Source: Thermoanaerobaculia bacterium | GTDB taxonomy: Bacteria > Acidobacteriota > Thermoanaerobaculia > Multivoradales > UBA5704 | Direction of reading: 5' to 3' | NCBI GenBank assembly: GCA_044866775.1 | Contig: JBIOUG010000095.1 | Location: forward strand, 4,415-68,414 | DNA length: 64,000 nucleotides | In this document: positions 42,102 to 55,016 of the stretch, in pieces | Position numbering within the stretch: the stretch's first letter is position 1 | Layout of the letters: every line of letters begins with the position of its first letter | Made by a program: the position numbers and the translations under genes | The notes under the pieces: model-generated | Databases searched by the model: none | What the model was told of the DNA's origin: nothing | The model's input: only the letters and a program-made list of their open reading frames with translations

Positions 42102-42473
42102 CTACGAGATCGAGAATTCATAGGCTTCGCGCAGGTACGGCTTCATGGCTTCGAGCTCCTCCATATCTCGAAGCTTGACCACGTGCGAGACGTGCTTTCG
42201 ATCGGCGGCAACTTTCATGAACAGCTTGTTCTCCGCCTTCCGCCCCAGGTGGATCACGAGCCGCAAAGCATCAGACATGACCGTCAAGTCCGCGAAGATG
42301 CGGTTGCTCCGAAGCAACACGTATCGCTCGCGTGTCACGAACTCCACGGGACCGAGCGAATTCGCGAACGACTCCAACGCGGCATAGAGCTCGATGAGCT
42401 CTGGCGATCTGTTCCGCAACACCTCGGTTCGGTTGCCGGTACCGCAAGCGTGGCGGGCTCCGACTCTCTCCAT
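42102..42473 (-). CDS. DUF5655-like protein (possibly N-terminally damaged)
   Basis: PELIELYAALESFANSLGPVEFVTRERYVLLRSNRIFADLTVMSDALRLVIHLG...HVVKLRDMEELEAMKPYLREAY resembles DUF5655. The first about 20 codons overlap the upstream small ORF out of frame. Confidence 0.5.
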   Translation of the reverse strand: MERVGARHACGTGNRTEVLRNRSPELIELYAALESFANSLGPVEFVTRERYVLLRSNRIFADLTVMSDALRLVIHLGRKAENKLFMKVAADRKHVSHVVKLRDMEELEAMKPYLREAYEFSIS

Positions 42474-44121: not shown

Positions 44122-47100
44122 ATGACCGATCTGTTCTTCCAGCGACCGATCCTCAACTCGCCGTACGAGTACCCGAGCCGGCACTGGGAGCTCGATTCGA
44201 CGGGCCAGCCCACGGGAAAGATCCTCGAGAAGCGCCGTGAAGCAGCGTACATCACGCCGATCCCGAAGCCGAAGAAGCGCAGGACGGGCCAGAGGGAGTT
44301 CGTCTTCGACGAGGGTAAGGGGCTCTCGACGGAGGAGCAGCAGTACGATCCGACGCCGGTCATCAACGCCTTGCGCGCCAAGGTGGACGCCTGGCGGGCG
44401 CTGCCCAATCCGAACGACTGGCTGGTGACGCCGGAGACGGCGCGCCTCCTCCAGCACTGGCGCCACCACGAGTTCAGCGGAGAGCGGCCGTTCTTCTGCC
44501 AGGTCGAGGCGGTCGAGACGCTCATCTGGCTGACCGAGGTCGCACCGAAGCTCGGCAAGGAGGGACAGCGGTTCATCGACCACTTGGACCGGGCCAACGA
44601 ACAGTCGAACCCCGGCCTGCGGCGCCTCGCGCTCAAGCTCGCCACGGGCTCCGGCAAGACGATCGTGATGGCGATGGTAGTCGCCTGGCAAACGATCAAC
44701 GCCGTGCGGCGGCCGAATAGCAGATCGTACACACGGGGGTTCCTGGTCGTGACTCCCGGTCTGACGGTCAAGGACCGGCTGCGCGTCCTCCAGCCCCACG
44801 ATCCGGACTCCTACTACCAAAGCCGCGAGCTCGTGCCGAACGACATGCTCCGCGACCTCGAACGCGCGAAGATCGTCATAACGAACTTCCAGGCGCTCAG
44901 GCTCCGCGAAACCCTCGAGGTCTCAAAAGGCGGGCGCGCCCTGCTCCAGGGACGACATGGCGAGCCGATCGACACCAAGGAGACGGAAGGCCAGATGCTC
45001 CAGCGCGTCCTGCCCGAGCTGATGGGGTTGCGCAACATCCTGGCGATCAATGACGAGGCCCACCACTGCTACCGCGAAAAGCCGACGGAGGCCGACGAGG
45101 AGGAGGCCGAGCTCAAGGGGGAGGAGCGCGATGAGGCCAAAAAGAACCGCGAAGCAGCGCGACTCTGGATCTCCGGGCTCGAAGCGCTCCAGCGCAAGCT
45201 AGGCTTGATGCGCATCATCGACCTCTCGGCGACCCCCTTCTTTCTCCGCGGCTCCGGCTATCGGGAAGGGGTGCTCTTCCACTGGACGATGAGCGACTTC
45301 TCGCTCATGGATGCCATCGAGTGCGGCATCGTCAAGCTCCCCCGCGTGCCGGTCGCCGACAACATCCCCGGCGGCGAGATGCCGAGGTTCCGCAATCTCT
45401 GGGAGCACATTCGCAACCGGATGCCGAAGAAGGGGCGCGGGAAGGCTGGCACGAGCTACGACCCGCTCAAGCTCCCTGTCGAGCTCCAGACCGCGCTCGA
45501 AGCGCTCTATGGCCACTACGACAAGACCTTCGAGCTATGGCGCAAGGCAGGTGTCGAGGTCCCCCCCTGCTTCATCGTCGTCTGCAACAACACCTCGGCA
45601 TCGAAGCTGGTCTACGACTACATTTCCGGCTTCTTCCGCGAGGCAGAAGAGGGCACAAGCACGTTCGAGAACGGTCGTCTACCCCTCTTCCGCAACTTCG
45701 ACGAGCACGGCAACCCGCTCCCCCGGCCTCGGACGCTGCTCATCGACTCCGAGCAGCTCGAGTCCGGGGAGTCGCTAAGCGACGACTTCCGAGCGGCGGC
45801 GGCCGACGAGCTCGAGCGCTTCCGGCGCGAGATCGTCGAACGGACAGGGGATCGCACCAGGGCTGAGAACCTCTCGGATCAGGAAATCCTTCGGGAAGTC
45901 ATGAACACCGTCGGCAAGAAAGGGCGCCTCGGCGAGGGGACACGGTGCGTGGTCTCGGTTTCGATGCTGACCGAGGGATGGGACGCGAACACCGTCACGC
46001 ACGTACTCGGCGTCCGGGCCTTCGGCACCCAGCTCCTCTGCGAGCAGGTCATCGGTCGCGCGCTGCGGCGGCAATCCTATGACCTGAATGAAGAAAAGCG
46101 CTTCAACGTCGAGTACGCCGACGTACTCGGGATTCCCTTCGATTTCACGGCGAAGCCGGTCATCGCGCCGCCGCAGCCACCGCGCGAGACGATCCTGGTC
46201 AGGGCGATCACCCCGGAGCGAGACGCCTGCGAGATCTGCTTCCCTCGCGTGGAGGGATACCGCGTAGAGCTCCCGGAGGAGCGGCTGGCGGCGACCTTCA
46301 CCGAAGATTCAACCCTCCTGCTCACTCCGGCCCTGGTCGGGCCATCGGTGACCCGCAACGAAGGGATCCTCGGCGAGGGGGTCGACCTGACGCTCGTCCA
46401 CACCGGGGAGCTCCGCCAGTCGACGCTCCTCTTCCACTTGACGCAGCGTCTCCTCTACACCAAGTGGCGTGACCCAGGCGGTGAGCCCAAGCTCTACCTC
46501 TTCGGCCAGTTGAAGCGCATCACCCGCGAGTGGCTGGAGAGCCATCTCGCCTGCAAGGGCGGCACCTATCCGGCGCAGCTCATGTACCTGAGCCTCGCCG
46601 ACCTGGCTTGCGAGCGGATCACAGCGGCGATAACCCGCCACTACTCGGCGGAACGCCCGATCCGGGCGATCCTCGACCCCTACAACCCGACGGGATCCAC
46701 CCGCTTCGTCCACTTCACGACCTCGAAGAAGCTCCGCTGGCAGACGGCCCCGAATCTCTGCCATGTCAACTGGGTGATCCTGGACAGCAACTGGGAGGCC
46801 GAGCTCTGCCGGGCCGTCGAGAGCCACTCGCACGTGCTTGCCTATGTGAAGAACCACAACCTCGGTTTCGAGGTCCCCTACAGGATGGGCTCGGAGTCGC
46901 GCCGCTACCGCCCGGACTTTATCGTCCTGGTCGACGACGGGCACGGCTTGGAGGACCCGCTTCACCTAGTGGTCGAGATCAAGGGCTACCGGGGGGAGGA
47001 CGCAAAGGAGAAGAAGTCGACCATGGAGACGTACTGGGTGCCTGGGGTGAACAACCTGGCCGCTTACGGGCGCTGGGACTTTGTCGAGCTGAAGGACATC

Positions 47101-47184
47101 TGGGAGATCGAATCGGATTTCCGGGCGACAATCGACACTGCCATCGCCGAGATGATGAAAGAGAAAACCGGAGCGGCGGTCTGA
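44122..47184 (+). CDS. type III-like restriction enzyme Res subunit (SF2 DEAH helicase + C-terminal PD-(D/E)xK nuclease)
   Basis: The N-terminus is FFQRPILNSPYEYPSRHWELD. Helicase motif I is LATGSGKT, motif II is INDEAHHCY and motif VI is QVIGRALRR. The nuclease motif is YRPDFIVLV...LVVEIKGY. Confidence 0.9.
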   Translation: MTDLFFQRPILNSPYEYPSRHWELDSTGQPTGKILEKRREAAYITPIPKPKKRRTGQREFVFDEGKGLSTEEQQYDPTPVINALRAKVDAWRALPNPNDWLVTPETARLLQHWRHHEFSGERPFFCQVEAVETLIWLTEVAPKLGKEGQRFIDHLDRANEQSNPGLRRLALKLATGSGKTIVMAMVVAWQTINAVRRPNSRSYTRGFLVVTPGLTVKDRLRVLQPHDPDSYYQSRELVPNDMLRDLERAKIVITNFQALRLRETLEVSKGGRALLQGRHGEPIDTKETEGQMLQRVLPELMGLRNILAINDEAHHCYREKPTEADEEEAELKGEERDEAKKNREAARLWISGLEALQRKLGLMRIIDLSATPFFLRGSGYREGVLFHWTMSDFSLMDAIECGIVKLPRVPVADNIPGGEMPRFRNLWEHIRNRMPKKGRGKAGTSYDPLKLPVELQTALEALYGHYDKTFELWRKAGVEVPPCFIVVCNNTSASKLVYDYISGFFREAEEGTSTFENGRLPLFRNFDEHGNPLPRPRTLLIDSEQLESGESLSDDFRAAAADELERFRREIVERTGDRTRAENLSDQEILREVMNTVGKKGRLGEGTRCVVSVSMLTEGWDANTVTHVLGVRAFGTQLLCEQVIGRALRRQSYDLNEEKRFNVEYADVLGIPFDFTAKPVIAPPQPPRETILVRAITPERDACEICFPRVEGYRVELPEERLAATFTEDSTLLLTPALVGPSVTRNEGILGEGVDLTLVHTGELRQSTLLFHLTQRLLYTKWRDPGGEPKLYLFGQLKRITREWLESHLACKGGTYPAQLMYLSLADLACERITAAITRHYSAERPIRAILDPYNPTGSTRFVHFTTSKKLRWQTAPNLCHVNWVILDSNWEAELCRAVESHSHVLAYVKNHNLGFEVPYRMGSESRRYRPDFIVLVDDGHGLEDPLHLVVEIKGYRGEDAKEKKSTMETYWVPGVNNLAAYGRWDFVELKDIWEIESDFRATIDTAIAEMMKEKTGAAV

Positions 47185-50057
47185 TGCCGACGACGAAGAA
47201 GCCGAAGCCCAAGAAGCAAGTGGAGGCGCTCCGCCACGACGAGGCGTCCCGGAAGTACATCCCGACGGCCGAGTACCAGTCGCTGCTCGCATCCAGCGAA
47301 CAGGAAACCGTGGAGGTCCGCTATCCGCGCAACACCTCTGGCCTCGGGGAGGAGACGGCGTCGCGGAACCGGGATCTCGACCCACAGGTCGTCTGGCGCG
47401 GCAAAGACGAGAAGGACTGGTCCGACCTCGTGGTCCCGGCGCCTCCCCTCTTCATTCAGGAGAAGATCCATCCCAAGGTCCTGATCGACGACCTGATGCG
47501 CCGGAGCGCGGCGGCCGCGGCGGAGAAGTCGGCTTCAGAGCCGGGCCATCAGCCCGATCTATTCGCGGACTTCAATGGGATCGCAGATCCGAGCCTGAAG
47601 ACCGAGTTCTACCAGCACGACGCCAACTGGGCGAACCGGATGATCCTGGGCGACAGCCTACAGGTGATGGCCTCTCTCGCCGAGCGCGAGGGCCTCCGCG
47701 GGCAGGTGCAGTGCATCTACATGGACCCGCCCTACGGCATTAAGTTCAACTCCAACTTCCAGTGGTCCACGACGAGCCGTGACGTCAAAGACGGCAACCT
47801 CAACCACATCACCCGCGAGCCTGAGCAAGTCAGAGCCTTTCGCGACACCTGGCGCGACGGCATCCACAGCTACCTGACCTACCTCCGCGACCGCTTCAGC
47901 GTGGCCCGCGACCTTCTTGCTGACTCTGGCTCGATCTTCGTCCAGATCGGGGACGAGAACGTGCATCGTGTTCGCGGAGTGATGGATGAGGTGTTCGGAA
48001 GCGACAACTTCGTCTCGTTGATCACCATCGTGAAGACAACCGGCGCCGGGAGTCCAGCGATTGGAACGAACGTCCTCGCTTCGGTGAACGACTACATCCT
48101 CTGGTACGCGAAGAAACTTCCGAGTATCAAGTATCGTCAGGTCTACGAGCAGAGACAACTCGGCAAAGAAGGGGCTACTCAATACGGCCTCCTAGAGTCG
48201 CCAGACGGGCTGTATGTGCGAGGAATGTCTGAAGAAGAAAAGGCGCAACCCGAATTGATCCCTTCTGGTTGGAAGATCATTGCGCATGACAATCTGACAT
48301 CTCAGACTGGCGCTGAGACAACGCAGGTTCCAATCTCGTGGCAAGGCCGGAGCTACAAGGCCAACAAGGGCGGCTGGAAGACGAATGTAGAAGGCGCGGA
48401 TCGTCTAGCCAAAGCAACGAGGCTTCTTCCGATCGGACACACGCTTCGCTACCGGCGTCGTTTTGCAGACTTCGGCAACATTCCTATCAACAACTTCTGG
48501 TCGGCGTTCAGGATTAGTGGTTTCTCGGATCCAAAGATCTACGTTGTGCAAACGAATCCAGGAATTGTCGATCGCTGTCTCTTGATGGCGTCTGATCCGG
48601 GGGACCTCGTCCTAGATCCCACGTGCGGTTCAGGCACGACCGCATTCGTGGCGGAGCTAGAGGGTAGGCGGTGGATCACGATCGATACATCGCGCGTAGC
48701 ATTGGCGCTAGCGCGGGCTCGCATCATGGGGGCGCGGTATCCGTTCTATCTGCTCGCCGACAGCGAGGAAGGGCAGCGGAAGGAGGCCGAGATCGCGCAC
48801 TCGGAGCCATCGGCGGCGCCAAGGCGGGGCGACCTGCGGCAGGGCTTTGTCTACGAGCGGGTGCCGCACATTACCCTCAAGTCAATCGCCAACAACGTCG
48901 AGATCGACGTCATCTGGGAGCGATTCCAGGCGGCTCTCGAGCCATTGCGCGCGGAGTTGAACGCCGCCCTCGGCCAAGCGTGGGAGGAGTGGGAGATTCC
49001 TCGTGAAGCCGATGTGCGGTGGACTGCGAAGGCGAAGGAGCTGCACTCGAGGTGGTGGGAGCAGCGGATCGCGCGACAGCGGGAGATCGACGCCTCGATC
49101 GCGGCTAAGGCGGTGTACGAGTACCTCTACGACAAGCCGTATGACGATCCGAAGAAGGTCAGAGTCGCCGGTCCGTTCACGGTGGAGAGCCTATCGCCGC
49201 ACCGGGTGCTCGGCGTCAACGAGAACGACCAGCTGATCGACAGTGTCGCCGAGCAGAAGCTCGGGTACACCGTGCAGCGAGACTTCCCGTCAATGATCCT
49301 CGAGAGCCTGAGGGCGGCGGGTGTTCAGCAGGCTCACAAGGAAGACCGGATCGCCTTCTCCTCGTTGACCCCCTGGCCGGGCGATCTCGTTTGTGCTGAA
49401 GGTCGCTACTTCGAGGGTTCCGACAGCAAAGGTCAGGAGAGGCGCGCCGCGATCTTCATCGGTCCCGAGTTCGGCACCGTCTCACGGCCGGACCTGGTCG
49501 CCGCAGCTCGGGAGGCGGCCGACGCCGGCTTCGATGTCCTAATCGCCTGCGCCTTCAACTTCGACGCCCATTCGACCGACTTCTCGAAGCTCGGCCGGGT
49601 CCCCGTTCTCAAGGCTCGGATGAACGCCGACCTCCACATGGCCGAAGACCTTAAGAGCACCGGCAAGGGCAACCTCTTCGTCATCTTCGGCGAGCCGGAC
49701 ATCGAGATCCTGCCGGCGGAGAGCGACCAGATCCGAGTACGCGTCAAAGGCGTCGACGTCTTCCACCCCCAGACCGGCGAGATCCGCAGCGACGGCCCCG
49801 AGGGCATCGCCTGCTGGTTCATCGACACCGACTACAACAAAGAGAGCTTCTTCGTCCGCCATGCCTACTTCCTTGGCGCCAACGACCCCTATAAGGCTCT
49901 CAAGACCACCCTCAAGGCCGAAATCGACGAGGATGCCTGGGCGACTCTCCACAGCGACACCTCGCGGCCGTTCGAGAAGCCGAAGTCGCGACGGATCGCG
50001 GTCAAAGTCATCAACCATCTCGGCGACGAGGTGATGAAGGTCTTCCGCGTAGAGTAG
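47184..50057 (+). CDS. site-specific DNA methyltransferase (Mod subunit; beta-class N6A/N4C MTase)
   Basis: The ATG at 47184 overlaps the res stop. Motif IV is IYMDPPYGIKF and precedes motif I, LVLDPTCGSGTTAFVA. It is the C-terminal 957 codons of track ORF 46530..50057. Confidence 0.9.
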   Translation: MPTTKKPKPKKQVEALRHDEASRKYIPTAEYQSLLASSEQETVEVRYPRNTSGLGEETASRNRDLDPQVVWRGKDEKDWSDLVVPAPPLFIQEKIHPKVLIDDLMRRSAAAAAEKSASEPGHQPDLFADFNGIADPSLKTEFYQHDANWANRMILGDSLQVMASLAEREGLRGQVQCIYMDPPYGIKFNSNFQWSTTSRDVKDGNLNHITREPEQVRAFRDTWRDGIHSYLTYLRDRFSVARDLLADSGSIFVQIGDENVHRVRGVMDEVFGSDNFVSLITIVKTTGAGSPAIGTNVLASVNDYILWYAKKLPSIKYRQVYEQRQLGKEGATQYGLLESPDGLYVRGMSEEEKAQPELIPSGWKIIAHDNLTSQTGAETTQVPISWQGRSYKANKGGWKTNVEGADRLAKATRLLPIGHTLRYRRRFADFGNIPINNFWSAFRISGFSDPKIYVVQTNPGIVDRCLLMASDPGDLVLDPTCGSGTTAFVAELEGRRWITIDTSRVALALARARIMGARYPFYLLADSEEGQRKEAEIAHSEPSAAPRRGDLRQGFVYERVPHITLKSIANNVEIDVIWERFQAALEPLRAELNAALGQAWEEWEIPREADVRWTAKAKELHSRWWEQRIARQREIDASIAAKAVYEYLYDKPYDDPKKVRVAGPFTVESLSPHRVLGVNENDQLIDSVAEQKLGYTVQRDFPSMILESLRAAGVQQAHKEDRIAFSSLTPWPGDLVCAEGRYFEGSDSKGQERRAAIFIGPEFGTVSRPDLVAAAREAADAGFDVLIACAFNFDAHSTDFSKLGRVPVLKARMNADLHMAEDLKSTGKGNLFVIFGEPDIEILPAESDQIRVRVKGVDVFHPQTGEIRSDGPEGIACWFIDTDYNKESFFVRHAYFLGANDPYKALKTTLKAEIDEDAWATLHSDTSRPFEKPKSRRIAVKVINHLGDEVMKVFRVE

Positions 50058-50242
50058 CGAGTTGACTACCCTTTGCCGCCCCGACCTGCTTGATCCTGCC
50101 GGCCTGGTCCTAGGGTACAACAAGCCCCACAGGGCTTGCGCCCGAGGAAGATAGCCTCTATGCTGCGCGAGCACTCATATCTCATGTCGTGATCCCGTTG
50201 GCGCTGGAGCGTCGAGCCCTGGCCGGTGAAGGAGGGACCCGC

Positions 50243-51193
50243 ATGGCAACAACTGCGCCCAGAGAACCGAAGAAACGCACTCTGACCTATCGTCGAGCTG
50301 TCTGGCATGTAGCCGAGGACCACGACCTTCAATACTACGTCCGTCGAATCCATCAGCGACTGACCACCACTCGCGCGCGAACCTTTCAATACACGGGCGG
50401 TACCGTGCTCACCGGCATGTGCTTTGAGAGCCGGCACGGCTCCGCACTCGGTCATTTAGCTCAGTTCGTGCCACATGACCACGCCTCTACAATTCCTGTT
50501 CCCTCGGTGGAACTTGCAGACTCAGATGCGGCCGAGCTCCCGCCCCCCCGCGGCCGTGAATTCCTGACAGGAGATCTCTTCTTCTTGGTGCATGGCAACA
50601 ATGTTCTCCTCTGCCCTAGCGGCGCGCGCGAAAGTGCACTAAAAGCTTATCTTGATAGGGCTGGCGAGGCAACCGGCGAGCGCGGTTTGATGAGCAGATG
50701 CGGCATTGAGCCTGTGGCTAACGTGGCTAAATTGGCTCTCATACGCGAAGAAGGAGTCAAGAGTATTCAATTGGACGCGACGCTCTTCTCGGCGTCGCTG
50801 ATGGACGAGCAAGTCCCTACTGTTCGCCGTCACGTGCTGAGTCGGGTCGGCGATAGCCTGCTTGACCTGTTCGGAGACGACCCCGATCTGGCTCAGGCGG
50901 CCGAAGACGAGAATATAACTGTTTATTTGGAAGTAGTTTTCGACAAACGAAGGAAGGGCGGAGTGATTGGTCAGAGGAGGATGCAGGGGTTGGCCAGCCA
51001 GCTAGTGAAGGAGCATGAGCCTGGATTTCGTATCGTCACTGGGAGTGGCGGCGTGATTGAATCCGACGAACTCAAGATACAACAACCTGTGCCATTGAGG
51101 CCACGTGGAAGCAGCGTTGAAAGAGAGCATGCTTGGGAAGCTCTTCTCGGATTCCTTGAAGACCTGCGCCGAAGCGGAGCGCTAGAGACATGA
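50243..51193 (+). CDS. hypothetical soluble protein (316 aa), first gene of low-GC two-gene cassette
   Basis: A GGAGGG lies 6 nt upstream of the ATG at 50243; the track ORF starts at a GTG at 50189. No TM segments and no motif recognised. The stop overlaps the next start (ATGA). Confidence 0.6.
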   Translation: MATTAPREPKKRTLTYRRAVWHVAEDHDLQYYVRRIHQRLTTTRARTFQYTGGTVLTGMCFESRHGSALGHLAQFVPHDHASTIPVPSVELADSDAAELPPPRGREFLTGDLFFLVHGNNVLLCPSGARESALKAYLDRAGEATGERGLMSRCGIEPVANVAKLALIREEGVKSIQLDATLFSASLMDEQVPTVRRHVLSRVGDSLLDLFGDDPDLAQAAEDENITVYLEVVFDKRRKGGVIGQRRMQGLASQLVKEHEPGFRIVTGSGGVIESDELKIQQPVPLRPRGSSVEREHAWEALLGFLEDLRRSGALET

Positions 51194-51720
51194 AGCCCCA
51201 AATAAGCAAGGCGGAGGTTGCGTTTTTCGTCTTGACCCTTGTTGCTAGCTGCGTAGCCGCTCGCTATGTTCAGCCGCTGATTCATGGAGATAAGGAAGCG
51301 ATCGGGCTCATCGCTACTGTATTTTCTATCTTGGCCGGACTCTTGGTGGGAATCATAACCCTTGTTGCGGATACGTCGAGCCTGCCAGGCAAGACGTGGC
51401 GGGGCGTTGCACTCGCGCGGCCGATTCTTAGGCGGCGCTTGTATCGTCATCGCGTACTGTTCCTCGTCTATCTCGTCACGCTTCTGCTAATACTGGCGGC
51501 ATTAATTGTAGATGATGGATCGGGAGGCAAGATTGTAAAGTGGTTGGAAAGGGTATATATTTTTTTCGCCGCCGTAGGATTCGCTTACTCATTGCGTCTA
51601 CCCTGGACGCTGGCTCGCATGCAAGAAGAGCGACTAAATGCGGCCATCGAGGAACGGCGCCAGCAAGCCGGCGCAGCGGCAAGCGGCGTAACGGAAGCGA
51701 AGGAAGGCCGGATCGAGTAG
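51190..51720 (+). CDS. hypothetical four-TM membrane protein (176 aa) with charged C-terminal tail
   Basis: Hydrophobic segments lie at about residues 8-27, 37-60, 88-107 and 122-141. The tail is MQEERLNAAIEERRQQAG. The gene is translationally coupled to the upstream gene. Confidence 0.65.
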   Translation: MKPQISKAEVAFFVLTLVASCVAARYVQPLIHGDKEAIGLIATVFSILAGLLVGIITLVADTSSLPGKTWRGVALARPILRRRLYRHRVLFLVYLVTLLLILAALIVDDGSGGKIVKWLERVYIFFAAVGFAYSLRLPWTLARMQEERLNAAIEERRQQAGAAASGVTEAKEGRIE

Positions 51721-52161: not shown

Positions 52162-52509
52162 TCACCCGGGCGGAACGCCGAGGGCGATCATCAGGGCCCG
52201 ATCGACTCGGCGCATCACAGCGGCAGGGAGGGTTGCGGCGGGGCCCTGGAGCTGCTCCTTCCAGAGAGTGTAGATCTCGGCGCACTTGACGACGCTGGCT
52301 CGCTGGAGGCCGGCCGTTCCCTTCGGCAAGCTGACCTCCCAGTCGAAGTCGCGTCCCAAGCGGCCGACGGAAGTCAAGTGCACGACCAGCACTTTCAGGT
52401 AGCGCTCGTTGGCGTTGAAGGCGTCGTCCGAGACCACGAGCATCGGCCGGCGCTTCTCTGCTGCGCCACGCATCGGCACTTTTGCCCACCAGATCTCGCC
52501 ACGCCGCAT
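52162..52509 (-). CDS. type II toxin, PemK/MazF family
   Basis: MRRGEIWWAKVP....RRPMLVVSDDAFN...LKVLVVHLTS...SVVKCAEIYTL is the MazF pattern. The start is placed at the internal Met; the track ORF extends to 52569 and overlaps the antitoxin gene out of frame. Confidence 0.8.
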   Translation of the reverse strand: MRRGEIWWAKVPMRGAAEKRRPMLVVSDDAFNANERYLKVLVVHLTSVGRLGRDFDWEVSLPKGTAGLQRASVVKCAEIYTLWKEQLQGPAATLPAAVMRRVDRALMIALGVPPG

Positions 52510-52513
52510 TGCC

Positions 52514-52759
52514 TTACTCTTCGCGGTCGAAGGCTTGGACGTCGATGAGCCCTTCGTCTTCGTCGCCATACCCGCGGTCGCAATAGGTCGCCACCTGCTC
52601 TGCCAAGAGATCCCGCCGCACTCGCTCGAGCTTCTCGTCGATGGCCTCGCGGATGAGCTCCGAGCTGGTGCGGTAGCGGCCGGTCTCCACGATCTCTCGG
52701 ATGCGCTCCAACTGGGCCGGCTCGGCGGTGAACACGGTCTTGCGCTTGGAAGCTGCCAT
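52514..52759 (-). CDS. ribbon-helix-helix antitoxin (CopG/ParD-like)
   Basis: RKTVFTAEPAQLERIREIVETGRYRTSSELIREAIDEKLE. Has an acidic C-terminus and lies 4 nt upstream of the MazF-like gene. Confidence 0.75.
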   Translation of the reverse strand: MAASKRKTVFTAEPAQLERIREIVETGRYRTSSELIREAIDEKLERVRRDLLAEQVATYCDRGYGDEDEGLIDVQAFDREE

Positions 52760-52822: not shown

Positions 52823-53566
52823 TCACGCCCCGAGCAGCCTCGGCAGGTACTCCGCCAACGCCGGCAGGTACACATGCGCCTTCGCCAGCAGCGCCTCGAC
52901 CTTGAGGATGATCTCGAGCAGGCGGTCGAGGTGATCCAGGTTCAGCGCCCCGCCCTGCTTCTTCACCCGCAGGTAGTGGACGGTGAGCTTGCCGACGGCG
53001 CGCTCGACGGCCTCCTCGAGGCCGCGGGCGCCGTGGATGCGGTAGTCGGCGACGGCGGCGCGGAGGGACTGGAGGATGTCGAGGGAGACCGAGCGGAGGG
53101 CGGGGTCGAGCTCGGCGCGGGCGGAGAAGGCGAAGAGGGAGTTGAGGCGGGCCTCGAGCTCGGCCAGGTCGTCGGGCGGCAGGATTAGCTCGGGGAGCTC
53201 CTCGGCGATGCGCAGGCCGCAGAACTCGACGGACTGGAGGACGATGTCGGAGAGGCCCTCCTGGAACGGGGGGTAGCGGCGGGAGTCCTGGTCGAGGCGG
53301 GCGGAGAGGAGGCCCTTCCTGGCCGCCGGGAAGTGGCGGAGGTAGCGCGGGGGGTCGAGGCCGGGGATCGCGGCGATCGCGGCCTGGGACTGGGCGAAGA
53401 GGTCGTCGAGGAGGACGAGCTTGCGGCGGATCGCGAGGTCGTCGGCGGGGTCGAGGTCGAAGACCTCGCCCAGGGCGTCGCGGATGGGGCGGCCCTCGCG
53501 GCAAGCGGCGCGCAGGGCGAGCAGGAGGCGGTGGAGGCGGAGGGCGGAGTTGGTCATGCGGTCCAT
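52823..53566 (-). CDS. hypothetical alpha-helical protein (247 aa)
   Basis: High third-position GC. The N-terminus MDRMTNSALRLHR is shared with the upstream pseudogene. No motif recognised. Confidence 0.6.
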   Translation of the reverse strand: MDRMTNSALRLHRLLLALRAACREGRPIRDALGEVFDLDPADDLAIRRKLVLLDDLFAQSQAAIAAIPGLDPPRYLRHFPAARKGLLSARLDQDSRRYPPFQEGLSDIVLQSVEFCGLRIAEELPELILPPDDLAELEARLNSLFAFSARAELDPALRSVSLDILQSLRAAVADYRIHGARGLEEAVERAVGKLTVHYLRVKKQGGALNLDHLDRLLEIILKVEALLAKAHVYLPALAEYLPRLLGA

Positions 53567-53575
53567 GGGGAGGCC

Positions 53576-54127
53576 TCAGTCCTCTCCGATCGTCTGCGCC
53601 TCGCCCTCGACGTCGGGCGCGGGGGTCCGCCAGTCGCGGCCGACATGCACCTCGTGCTTGCCGGGCGCGCCCCAGCGGACGAGGACCAAGTCGACGGGAT
53701 CGCGCCAGCCGTTGCGGGGCGGCTGGGCCGGCCGCTCGAGGCTGGCGAGGAGGCCGCCGTCGAAGCGGCAGGCCGAGCACCATGCGCAGGAGGGCCGCGG
53801 CGGCCTGGTTGCGCGGGACCTCCGTGTTGGTGCGCAGGCCCGGCGCGAAGGGCTCGCCGTCCGGCGAGGCGAGCGCGTGGTAGAGGCGGAGGGCGCGGCC
53901 GAGCCAGTCGAGGGCCAGGGCGCGGAGCTTCGGGGCGCCGGGCCGCCGGCGAGACCGAGGATGCGGCGGTAGTAGGGCACCTCGCGCGGGTCGGAGACGA
54001 TCTTGCCGGCGAGGCAGTCGGCGAGGCGGGCTTGGAGGGCGACGTGGGCGCGTTGCGCAGGGCGCATCGGGAACCTCCATGAGTCGGGGCGGTGGAGGCG
54101 GGGGGCGGAGTTGGTGGTACGTTGCAT
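53576..54127 (-). pseudogene. hypothetical gene with two compensating frameshifts
   Basis: The ends are in one frame (MQRTTNSAPRLHR...PREVPYYRRILGLAGG and FDGGLLASLERPAQPPRNGWRDPVDLVLVRWGAPGKHEVHVG). The middle codes convincingly only in another frame, with nearly 100% GC3 (PKLRALALDWLGRALRLYHALASPDGEPFAPGLRTNTEVPRNQAAAALLRMVLGLP). Confidence 0.5.
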
Positions 54128-54663: not shown

Positions 54664-55016
54664 CTCCTTTCGTTGCTCAAGACGAGCGAGGAAGCGCTCC
54701 GGATAGAGCTCCGGGCGCTGGGGATACATCTCCGAGCGCTGGGGATACATCCCCGGTCGTTGGTGATGTATCTCCGGTTGTCGGTGATGTATCTCCCGTC
54801 ATTGGTGATGTATCTCCGGCCGTTGGAGATAGATCCCCAGGCGCTGGGGATGAATCTCCGGGCGCTGGGGATACATCCCCCAGGCGCTGGGGATAGATCC
54901 CCAGGCGTCGGGGATAGATCCCCGGGCGTGGGGGACACATCTCCGGCGGCTGCTACGACAACTTCCAGGGCCCGGATCGTCACCCCGCCCTCTGGCGCGG
55001 TTCCGCCGTCCGTCAC
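54660..55016 (-). CDS. possible heptad-repeat ORF spanning the 21-bp array (coding status unresolved)
   Basis: 118-codon ORF bounded by a GTGA overlap with the upstream gene (55013-55016) and an ATGA overlap with the downstream gene (54660-54663). It reads GDVSPTP GDLSPTP GDLSPAP then RRFIPSA RRYITND... Third-position GC is only moderate, and other frames are also open. Confidence 0.3.
   Translation of the reverse strand: MTDGGTAPEGGVTIRALEVVVAAAGDVSPTPGDLSPTPGDLSPAPGGCIPSARRFIPSAWGSISNGRRYITNDGRYITDNRRYITNDRGCIPSARRCIPSARSSIRSASSLVLSNERR
54694..54946. repeat. tandem array of about 13 units of 21 bp with a palindromic core (GGGGAT-AC-ATCCCC)
   Basis: Examples are gcgctggggatacatctccga (54715), gcgctggggatacatccccgg (54736), tcgttggtgatgtatctccgg (54757) and gcgctggggatagatccccag (54884). 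One unit has 22 bp (54862-54883). Confidence 0.9.

Follow-up and report, generated by a model that had tools for sequence, protein, structure and literature searches.

A co-evolving, translationally coupled gene pair of RexA/RexB-like layout, probably an anti-phage module, in a Thermoanaerobaculia genome

The gene pair and its products

The subject of this analysis is a pair of adjacent genes, here called A and B, in a 64,000-nucleotide (nt) stretch of DNA from a Thermoanaerobaculia bacterium (assembly GCA_044866775.1, contig JBIOUG010000095.1, positions 4,415 to 68,414 of the forward strand). This whole stretch is referred to as the window, and its own numbering is used throughout. An original prediction, made from the sequence alone, had proposed that the two genes form an undescribed defence cassette. 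The pair comprises the following features:

50230-50236, + strand: Shine-Dalgarno-like GGAGGG, 6 nt before the ATG of gene A (sequence reading)
50243-51193, + strand: gene A, soluble protein of 316 amino acids (aa) (open reading frame (ORF) list; same product in an independent gene call)
51190-51193, + strand: ATGA, where the stop of gene A overlaps the start of gene B (translational coupling; sequence)
51190-51720, + strand: gene B, basic (pI 10) 176-aa predicted inner-membrane protein with four transmembrane (TM) segments (ORF, hydropathy, AlphaFold2)

Both ORFs stand where the prediction had placed them, as do the GGAGGG 6 nt before the ATG at 50243 and the ATGA at 51190-51193, and independent gene calling in a public assembly of this DNA yields identical products of 316 and 176 aa. 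The start of gene A is the ATG at 50243 and not the upstream GTG at 50189, because the N-termini of homologues align there. Since each protein has hundreds of homologues of the same length, A and B are real genes and not chance ORFs.

The product of gene A is mildly acidic (34.9 kDa, pI 6.3). It has no hydrophobic segment (peak 19-residue Kyte-Doolittle score 1.13) and no Pfam, NCBIfam or PADLOC (2023) match at E<=1, in keeping with the earlier view that it lacks both TM segments and a recognised family. Sequence searches returned 19 homologues of A and 6 of B; a profile search with A found 997 representative clusters (50% identity) at E<=1e-3, 338 of them at E<=1e-30, all of ~300-340 aa. The alignment of homologues is marked by the motifs Y16-R-R18, P102, G110-D111, C124, G171, I264/T266, G289 and W298, and R18, R46, K163, K173 and R236 are conserved basic residues in an alignment of 132 sequences. 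A Pfam scan of these 132 homologues lists 25 families, the best of which match no more than three members. Among phage protein groups, A has a full-length, member-level match (E=3e-36) to PHROG phrog_26543, which is essentially the protein of phage BR319a and is annotated as function unknown, and on which a literature search found nothing; a weaker match is to the unannotated phrog_3482. A distant A homologue (23.6% identity, E=2e-7) is encoded at 198948-199871 of NZ_CP137018.1, a conjugative 464-kb plasmid of Sinorhizobium fredii.

The AlphaFold2 model of A (predicted local distance difference test score, pLDDT, 81.7; predicted template-modelling score 0.77) consists of antiparallel sheets with flanking helices, and the modelled order of secondary structure would be compatible with a split globular domain carrying an inserted alpha/beta domain. 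In BFVD, four uncharacterised phage proteins (A0A8S5S8L2, A0A8S5QGP5, A0A8S5MSR5 and A0A6J5Q1Z2; 277-322 aa, 8-11% identity to A) have the predicted fold of A, at E values of 7e-11 to 7e-8 and a Foldseek probability of 1.0, so that the fold is wider in phages than the sequence family. Sequence searches of the PDB with the A and B profiles gave noise alone. Tiny local Foldseek matches to protein tyrosine phosphatases (28-34 columns) had suggested a phosphatase-like phosphate loop, C124-P-S-G-A-R129. We dropped this candidate because the spacing is CX4R and not CX5R, and because S126, G127, R129 and E130 are each conserved at less than 70%; C124 is 88% conserved in the 132-sequence alignment.

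For B, hydropathy and the AlphaFold2 model (pLDDT 88.7) bear out the four hydrophobic helices and charged helical tail that had been read from the sequence. The model has four long helices (7-31, 35-60, 70-106 and 114-173), a K/R-rich loop predicted to be cytoplasmic (residues 61-88, 8 K/R) and a charged C-terminal helix; from the hydropathy and the loop charges we predict an N-in/C-in topology. P29, W70, R83, E120, S134, P138, E147 and R148 are invariant. A profile search with B found at least 611 homologous clusters (90% identity), all of ~160-190 aa; scans at E<=1 found no Pfam, NCBIfam or PADLOC (2023) family beyond noise, and B has no PHROG match. That neither protein belongs to a named defence family was as predicted, the PADLOC (2023), Pfam and NCBIfam scans being without a match.

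An obligate pair in mobile and defence contexts

We compared the pair with its relatives at 60 genome loci reached through B, in 11 viral contigs reached through A and in about a dozen contigs found by exact look-up. Wherever a locus extends upstream of B, its B gene is directly preceded by an A homologue on the same strand, which upholds the idea of a conserved two-gene cassette; and in nearly all of ~65 related loci the two genes meet in a -4/-1 overlap or a gap of no more than ~5 nt. Pairwise distances of A and of B are strongly correlated over 57 loci (Pearson 0.88, Mantel p=0.001). A-B is a strictly conserved, translationally coupled, co-evolving and obligate two-gene unit.

Its hosts include Alpha-, Beta-, Gamma- and Deltaproteobacteria, Planctomycetales, Synechococcaceae, Flavobacteriaceae, Verrucomicrobia and Chrysiogenes. 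In 49/49 loci the pair is poorer in GC than the flanking DNA (mean difference 11.9 points), and it has no conserved neighbour, the most widely shared neighbour family being present in 6/67 loci; these two observations together mark A-B as mobile cargo.

Across many phyla, A-B is found in mobile and defence contexts. Defence and toxin-antitoxin (TA) genes near related loci include PIN TA genes, AbiEi/AbiEii with an RHS toxin, the Druantia gene DruA, and Fic, and at one locus an Eco57I-type methyltransferase and ResIII lie directly upstream of the pair. The nearest neighbours in bulk include Type III methyltransferases (3), PLD nucleases, UvrD-like helicases, integrases and genes of type IV secretion systems. 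In Mesorhizobium hunchu (locus L031, 12733-18683), a copy of the Res/Mod restriction-modification (R-M) genes that adjoin the pair in the window (57-58% identity) is found 2.3 kb from A-B, in a differing orientation.

Temperate phages that carry the pair include the cultured P2-like Pseudomonas phage vB_Pae_BR319a, 11 IMG/VR contigs and Mu-like prophages, and three phage sites recur: beside the repressor, ahead of the endolysin, and within the head module of Mu-like phages. In vB_Pae_BR319a the order is Phage_CI_repr, a 125-aa ORF, A and B, a block that lies inverted, with tail gene D on one side and the Ogr region on the other; in Chrysiogenes (L080) it is Phage_CI_repr, a 152-aa ORF, A and B within a Mu-like prophage; and Desulfobacter (L079) has an order like that of L080, with a weak CI match. 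At three further loci (L029, L040 and L051) an S24/helix-turn-helix (HTH) repressor gene ends 23-34 nt upstream of A. In four Mu-like prophages (4/67 loci) B is followed, after 76-186 nt, by a GH108 endolysin gene. In the third site, which is unusual for accessory cargo, a Mu-like clade has the order portal, Mu F, gpG-like, A, B, protease I and major head T (L087, 2507-10082; also L085, L088, L089, L090, L058 and L069).

As a separate observation on vB_Pae_BR319a, a lone hypothetical gene on the opposite strand (L073, 17293-17820) stands between its tail-fibre and tail-sheath genes. This position is that of the P2 Z/fun accessory locus, and it may be a second cargo site of this phage.

The island around the pair

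In the window, A-B lies in an island of ~12 kb, bordered by a YceG/MltG gene and a pterin-4a-carbinolamine dehydratase gene. It holds a DUF5655 gene, an ORF of unknown function, Res and Mod, A-B, a PemK/MazF toxin gene with its ribbon-helix-helix (RHH) antitoxin gene, and several ORFs without matches. The features next to the pair are:

44122-47184, + strand: restriction subunit (Res) of the BPTD_3080 family, ResIII helicase + endonuclease (NCBIfam NF046055, 1334 bits; Pfam ResIII, RE_endonuc)
47184-50057, + strand: Type III-like DNA methyltransferase (Mod), 957 aa (PADLOC PDLC03632, 1377 bits; Pfam N6_N4_Mtase; gene call)
50058-50242, + strand: 185-nt spacer from the Mod stop to the A start, a possible promoter region of the pair's own (sequence)
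52162-52759, - strand: PemK/MazF toxin (52162-52569; Pfam PemK_toxin, E=6e-21) and RHH antitoxin (52514-52759; Pfam RHH_1, E=3e-6)

The position of the pair beside R-M and TA genes was thus correctly described, with Res and Mod directly upstream and PemK/MazF and RHH downstream (440 nt beyond gene B, on the opposite strand). The lower GC content also stood: the pair has 56% (A 56.5%, B 54.8%) against 70.7% for the whole window, with 72-73% in the far flanks, 64.6% in Res and 61.4% in Mod. The range of 43-55% that had been given for single 60-nt lines was too low, as these run from 42 to 72% with a mean of 56.7%. The pair had further been called docked to the R-M module, and here the adjacency holds but the two are not a unit: R-M neighbours occur in few other loci, and GC at third codon positions (GC3) is 0.57 in A and 0.58 in B against 0.87 in Res and 0.80 in Mod (0.80 in the core gene YceG), a gap which indicates that A-B and Res/Mod have different histories. 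A scan of the 50058-50242 spacer for the sigma-70 consensus detected no promoter, and a promoter and terminator scan around the cassette was uninformative.

Some other features of the surroundings may be recorded. The DUF5655 gene (42102-42473, - strand) forms the left edge of the low-GC island, right after the YceG/MltG gene; there are no tRNA genes within the window, and so none at an island edge. Two ORFs on the - strand, 52823-53566 and 53576-54127, have no Pfam match and share solely a 13-residue N-terminus, MxRxTNSAxRLHR (10/13 identical), which may be a duplicated 5′ end or gene debris. At 54694-54946, a 21-bp unit with the consensus GCGCTGGGGATACATCTCCGG is repeated 12 times in tandem (79% matches), within overlapping ORFs in which it encodes a 7-residue peptide repeat.

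Interpretation and comparison with known systems

The pairing, the carriage in prophages and defence islands, and the RexA/RexB-like layout suggest that A-B is probably an uncharacterised anti-phage module. We lean, by somewhat more than an even chance, towards a self-contained, horizontally mobile, two-component phage-exclusion module of the abortive-infection type, with a layout like that of RexA/RexB but no detectable relation to it in sequence. For this module we infer an anti-phage function, a sensor role for A, a membrane-permeabilising role for B, and contact between the two.

In such a module, lysogens or cells that bear the island would make both proteins from a single coupled transcript, and in a fixed ratio owing to the translational coupling. 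The product of gene A, the proposed cytosolic sensor or partner, would be a soluble and probably oligomeric activator able to recognise a phage product or a complex of phage nucleic acid and protein. The product of gene B, the proposed membrane effector, would sit in the inner membrane, where its K/R-rich loop and the long helix at its C-terminus would point into the cytoplasm; triggered by A, it might oligomerise or open, so that membrane potential or integrity is lost and both the infected cell and phage growth stop.

A bolder proposal, which we hold to be plausible although somewhat short of an even chance, is that A-B represents a large, unrecognised family of membrane-acting anti-phage systems, either independent of RexAB and Kiwa or diverged from them beyond recognition. 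Such a family would combine a soluble sensor fold without a solved relative and a four-TM effector that is a new kind of inducible pore, and with ~1000 clusters it would be spread over Proteobacteria, Planctomycetes, Verrucomicrobia, Cyanobacteria, Bacteroidota and Chrysiogenes, mainly by Mu-like and P2-like temperate phages.

Kiwa offers another way to read the pair. It, too, is found in defence islands, and the parts of A-B match its four-TM KwaA and its soluble, 315-aa KwaB in size. A Kiwa-like system with the roles reversed would have B as the membrane sensor of phage attachment or injection and A as a dimeric, DNA-binding effector that captures incoming phage DNA and blocks its replication or late transcription, with no killing of the cell. 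The many conserved basic residues of A would suit such a role, as would its weak fold matches to kinetochore proteins that bind DNA; and phage Butters uses its soluble Rex-like protein as the effector, the reverse of the roles that we propose for A-B. However, the order in Kiwa is kwaA (membrane) and then kwaB (soluble), opposite to that of A-B in the window and in all related loci; the N-domain of KwaB is Rossmann-like, whereas the A model has antiparallel sheets with flanking helices; and A is mildly acidic overall, despite its basic residues. Neither Pfam nor PADLOC gave a DUF4868/KwaB match for A or a KwaA match for B at E<=1, and DUF4868/KwaB is absent from the 25 families listed for the 132 homologues. 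We consider this reversed-role reading unlikely, and membership of Kiwa proper, which the original prediction had itself doubted, is ruled out by the hidden Markov models and the gene order. In the fold check that it had advised, no Kiwa chain is among the 50 listed Foldseek PDB matches of the A model or of the B model, in a library whose Kiwa content was unverified. CBASS and Pycsar were also considered and rejected, as A has no nucleotidyltransferase or cyclase domain and the families listed for the nearest neighbours include none of this kind. The prediction had named Kiwa, CBASS and Pycsar as sharing the logic of the pair; the closest known system is instead RexAB-type exclusion as in lambda, which it had not considered.

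The tight coupling and obligate pairing would equally suit a selfish addiction module, in which B acts as a toxin in the membrane and A neutralises it from the cytosol, the pair stabilising prophages and islands without any sensing of phage; the low GC of the cargo and its location in mobile elements beside other TA loci fit this as well. Against it, the putative toxin is half as large as its upstream partner, Pfam finds no DNA-binding antitoxin domain in A, and the pair often lies downstream of a prophage repressor, as Rex does, and not in an autonomous, autoregulated operon. We regard an addiction module as distinctly improbable, noting that TA and abortive-infection roles are not mutually exclusive. 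Adjacency to CI-type repressors in several phages could instead point to a regulator that serves the phage in the lysis-lysogeny decision or in prophage induction, with exclusion as a by-product, and RexA has such a role independently of RexB, stabilising the lytic state (PMC11077077). Yet many copies, including that of the window, are in non-phage islands, where the neighbours are R-M, TA or Abi genes and neither a repressor gene nor any phage gene is close by, and B, which a purely DNA-level regulator would not need, is always kept; we give this reading little probability. The endolysin genes closely downstream of B in four Mu-like prophages, together with the small, multi-TM nature of B, led us to consider a lysis-timing pair of holin/antiholin type with B as the holin. 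A 316-aa soluble partner is atypical of holin systems, most loci have no adjacent lysis gene and many lie outside phages altogether, while other Mu-like phages have the pair in the head module. These contexts rule out a holin as the general explanation, and leave a lysis-timing pair with a very slight chance. A similarly faint prospect is that A-B serves the neighbouring Type III-like R-M system as an accessory that is coupled in function to Res/Mod. This would draw on its start 185 nt after Mod on the same strand, the Res/Mod copy (58% identical) 2.3 kb from the pair in M. hunchu, the methyltransferases that are its nearest neighbours in three other loci, and the Eco57I/ResIII genes directly upstream in one; but the orientation differs in L031, and the great majority of loci have no adjoining R-M gene. 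We reject the accessory reading because of the codon composition and the lack of consistent linkage.

Several results weigh against the exclusion module that we favour. The Foldseek search of the PDB with the A model gave no significant match: the top three, all CENP-N, have E values of 0.03-0.06, probabilities of 0.4-0.7 and template-modelling scores of ~0.25, and RexA (8TWQ) is not among the 50 listed. The B model gave solely generic helical-bundle matches, none of them significant among the 50 listed. Three A alignments aligned by hhalign with RexA or a 4-sequence RexA alignment reached probabilities of 0.1-0.6%, and the B alignment with RexB or a RexB alignment 0.5-0.6%, whereas the positive control of two A clades at 19% identity gave 100%; as the RexA alignment is shallow, very remote homology to RexA lies beyond this test. 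RexA (phrog_12654) and RexB are in other PHROGs than A, and the RexA and RdgC Pfam families are absent from the 25 listed for the 132 A homologues. In the Mu-like head-module clade, A-B lies outside the immunity region and among late genes, so that it may not be expressed there in lysogens. Finally, which of A and B is sensor and which effector cannot be assigned from sequence, the roles in Kiwa and in phage Butters being reversed. RexA, RdgC and the kinetochore proteins IML3/CHL4 (orthologues of CENP-L/N, CHL4 being the yeast CENP-N orthologue) share the same domain scaffolds (PMC11077077); the CENP-N matches of the A model could therefore hint at a RexA fold, and we treat them as a lead and not as a demonstration.

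If A-B does prove to be such a module, Rex-type exclusion, of which five examples have been counted so far (PMC12894663), would be a common strategy and not a curiosity of lambda. Discovered 70 years ago as the first abortive-infection system, RexAB still awaits resolution of its trigger and mechanism; about a thousand diverse members, with confident models and a cultured carrier in the P. aeruginosa phage vB_Pae_BR319a, would allow a broad comparison of the ways in which a soluble sensor gates its small effector in the membrane. Defence-finding tools would gain an unannotated system, both of whose genes are now called ‘hypothetical’ everywhere, and Mu-like phages would be seen to carry defence cargo at three recurrent sites: by the repressor, ahead of the endolysin, and in the head module between genes G and I.

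The likeness to Rex is one of layout. In lambda, the soluble RexA (279 aa) and the four-TM RexB (144 aa) are encoded in the order cI-rexA-rexB and transcribed with cI (PMC11077077), and A-B has the same order of a soluble 316-aa and then a four-TM 176-aa protein. A soluble gene product of ~280-370 aa followed by a small four-TM one is common to lambda, the mycobacteriophage Sbash and the Gordonia phage CarolAnn. Published RexAB-type systems, namely those of lambda, Sbash, CarolAnn and P. putida, act in the manner proposed here for A-B. Like RexAB, A-B is carried by temperate phages with both genes always together, from which co-occurrence one may suppose that both are required; and it is co-directional with, and downstream of, a CI-type repressor gene in BR319a, L080, L079 (where the CI match is weak), L029, L040 and L051. 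Unlike RexAB, A-B has no such repressor placement in the R-M/TA island of the window or in the Mu-like head-module insertions, and its family is common outside phages too. B is also longer than lambda RexB and has a conserved charged C-terminal helix, and the two genes overlap where those of lambda are 15 nt apart.

A further comparison is with RexABpp (PP_5643/PP_5644) of Pseudomonas putida prophage P1, a RexAB-type defence system (Sci Rep 2026, PMC12894663), which we could set beside A-B by its published description and primer-derived termini alone. RexApp binds DNA, and its overexpression causes RexBpp-dependent membrane damage; the stoichiometry of the two partners is critical both for RexABpp and for lambda Rex; and the rexABpp genes are downstream of a CI-like repressor gene with two genes in between (PMC12894663). 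RexApp matches lambda RexA with 98% probability in HHpred (PMC12894663). In this respect A-B differs, as the profiles of the A family show no RexA signal; and the RexBpp termini, MLIGQLANP... and ...LYYLGYKLQE, are unlike those of B. The primer-derived sequences had no match (0) in viral and metagenome contigs, and no protein that we collected has such termini. On the side of likeness, RexApp has a mass of 37.5 kDa with its tag; RexBpp has four TM segments and at least 181 aa, as compared with 176-187 aa for B of the Pseudomonas-type clade; AT-richness is shared by the two cassettes, as is, in several phages that carry A-B, a place after a CI-like repressor gene with small intervening genes; the BLAST search of the RexABpp authors gave hypothetical proteins alone (PMC12894663); and there is a weak resemblance of the primer-deduced RexApp N-terminus, MHRTATFV..., to the N-termini MGRTATKRIHYVRA and MSRRTAIKKIHYVRA of a divergent ‘IHYVRA’ clade of A that includes Pseudomonas loci. 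That the cassette is undescribed, as originally proposed, holds in that no named family includes it, and is uncertain in that RexABpp matches it in sizes and context. A-B fails the sequence tests for RexAB and for Kiwa; in architecture and in context, it resembles RexAB.

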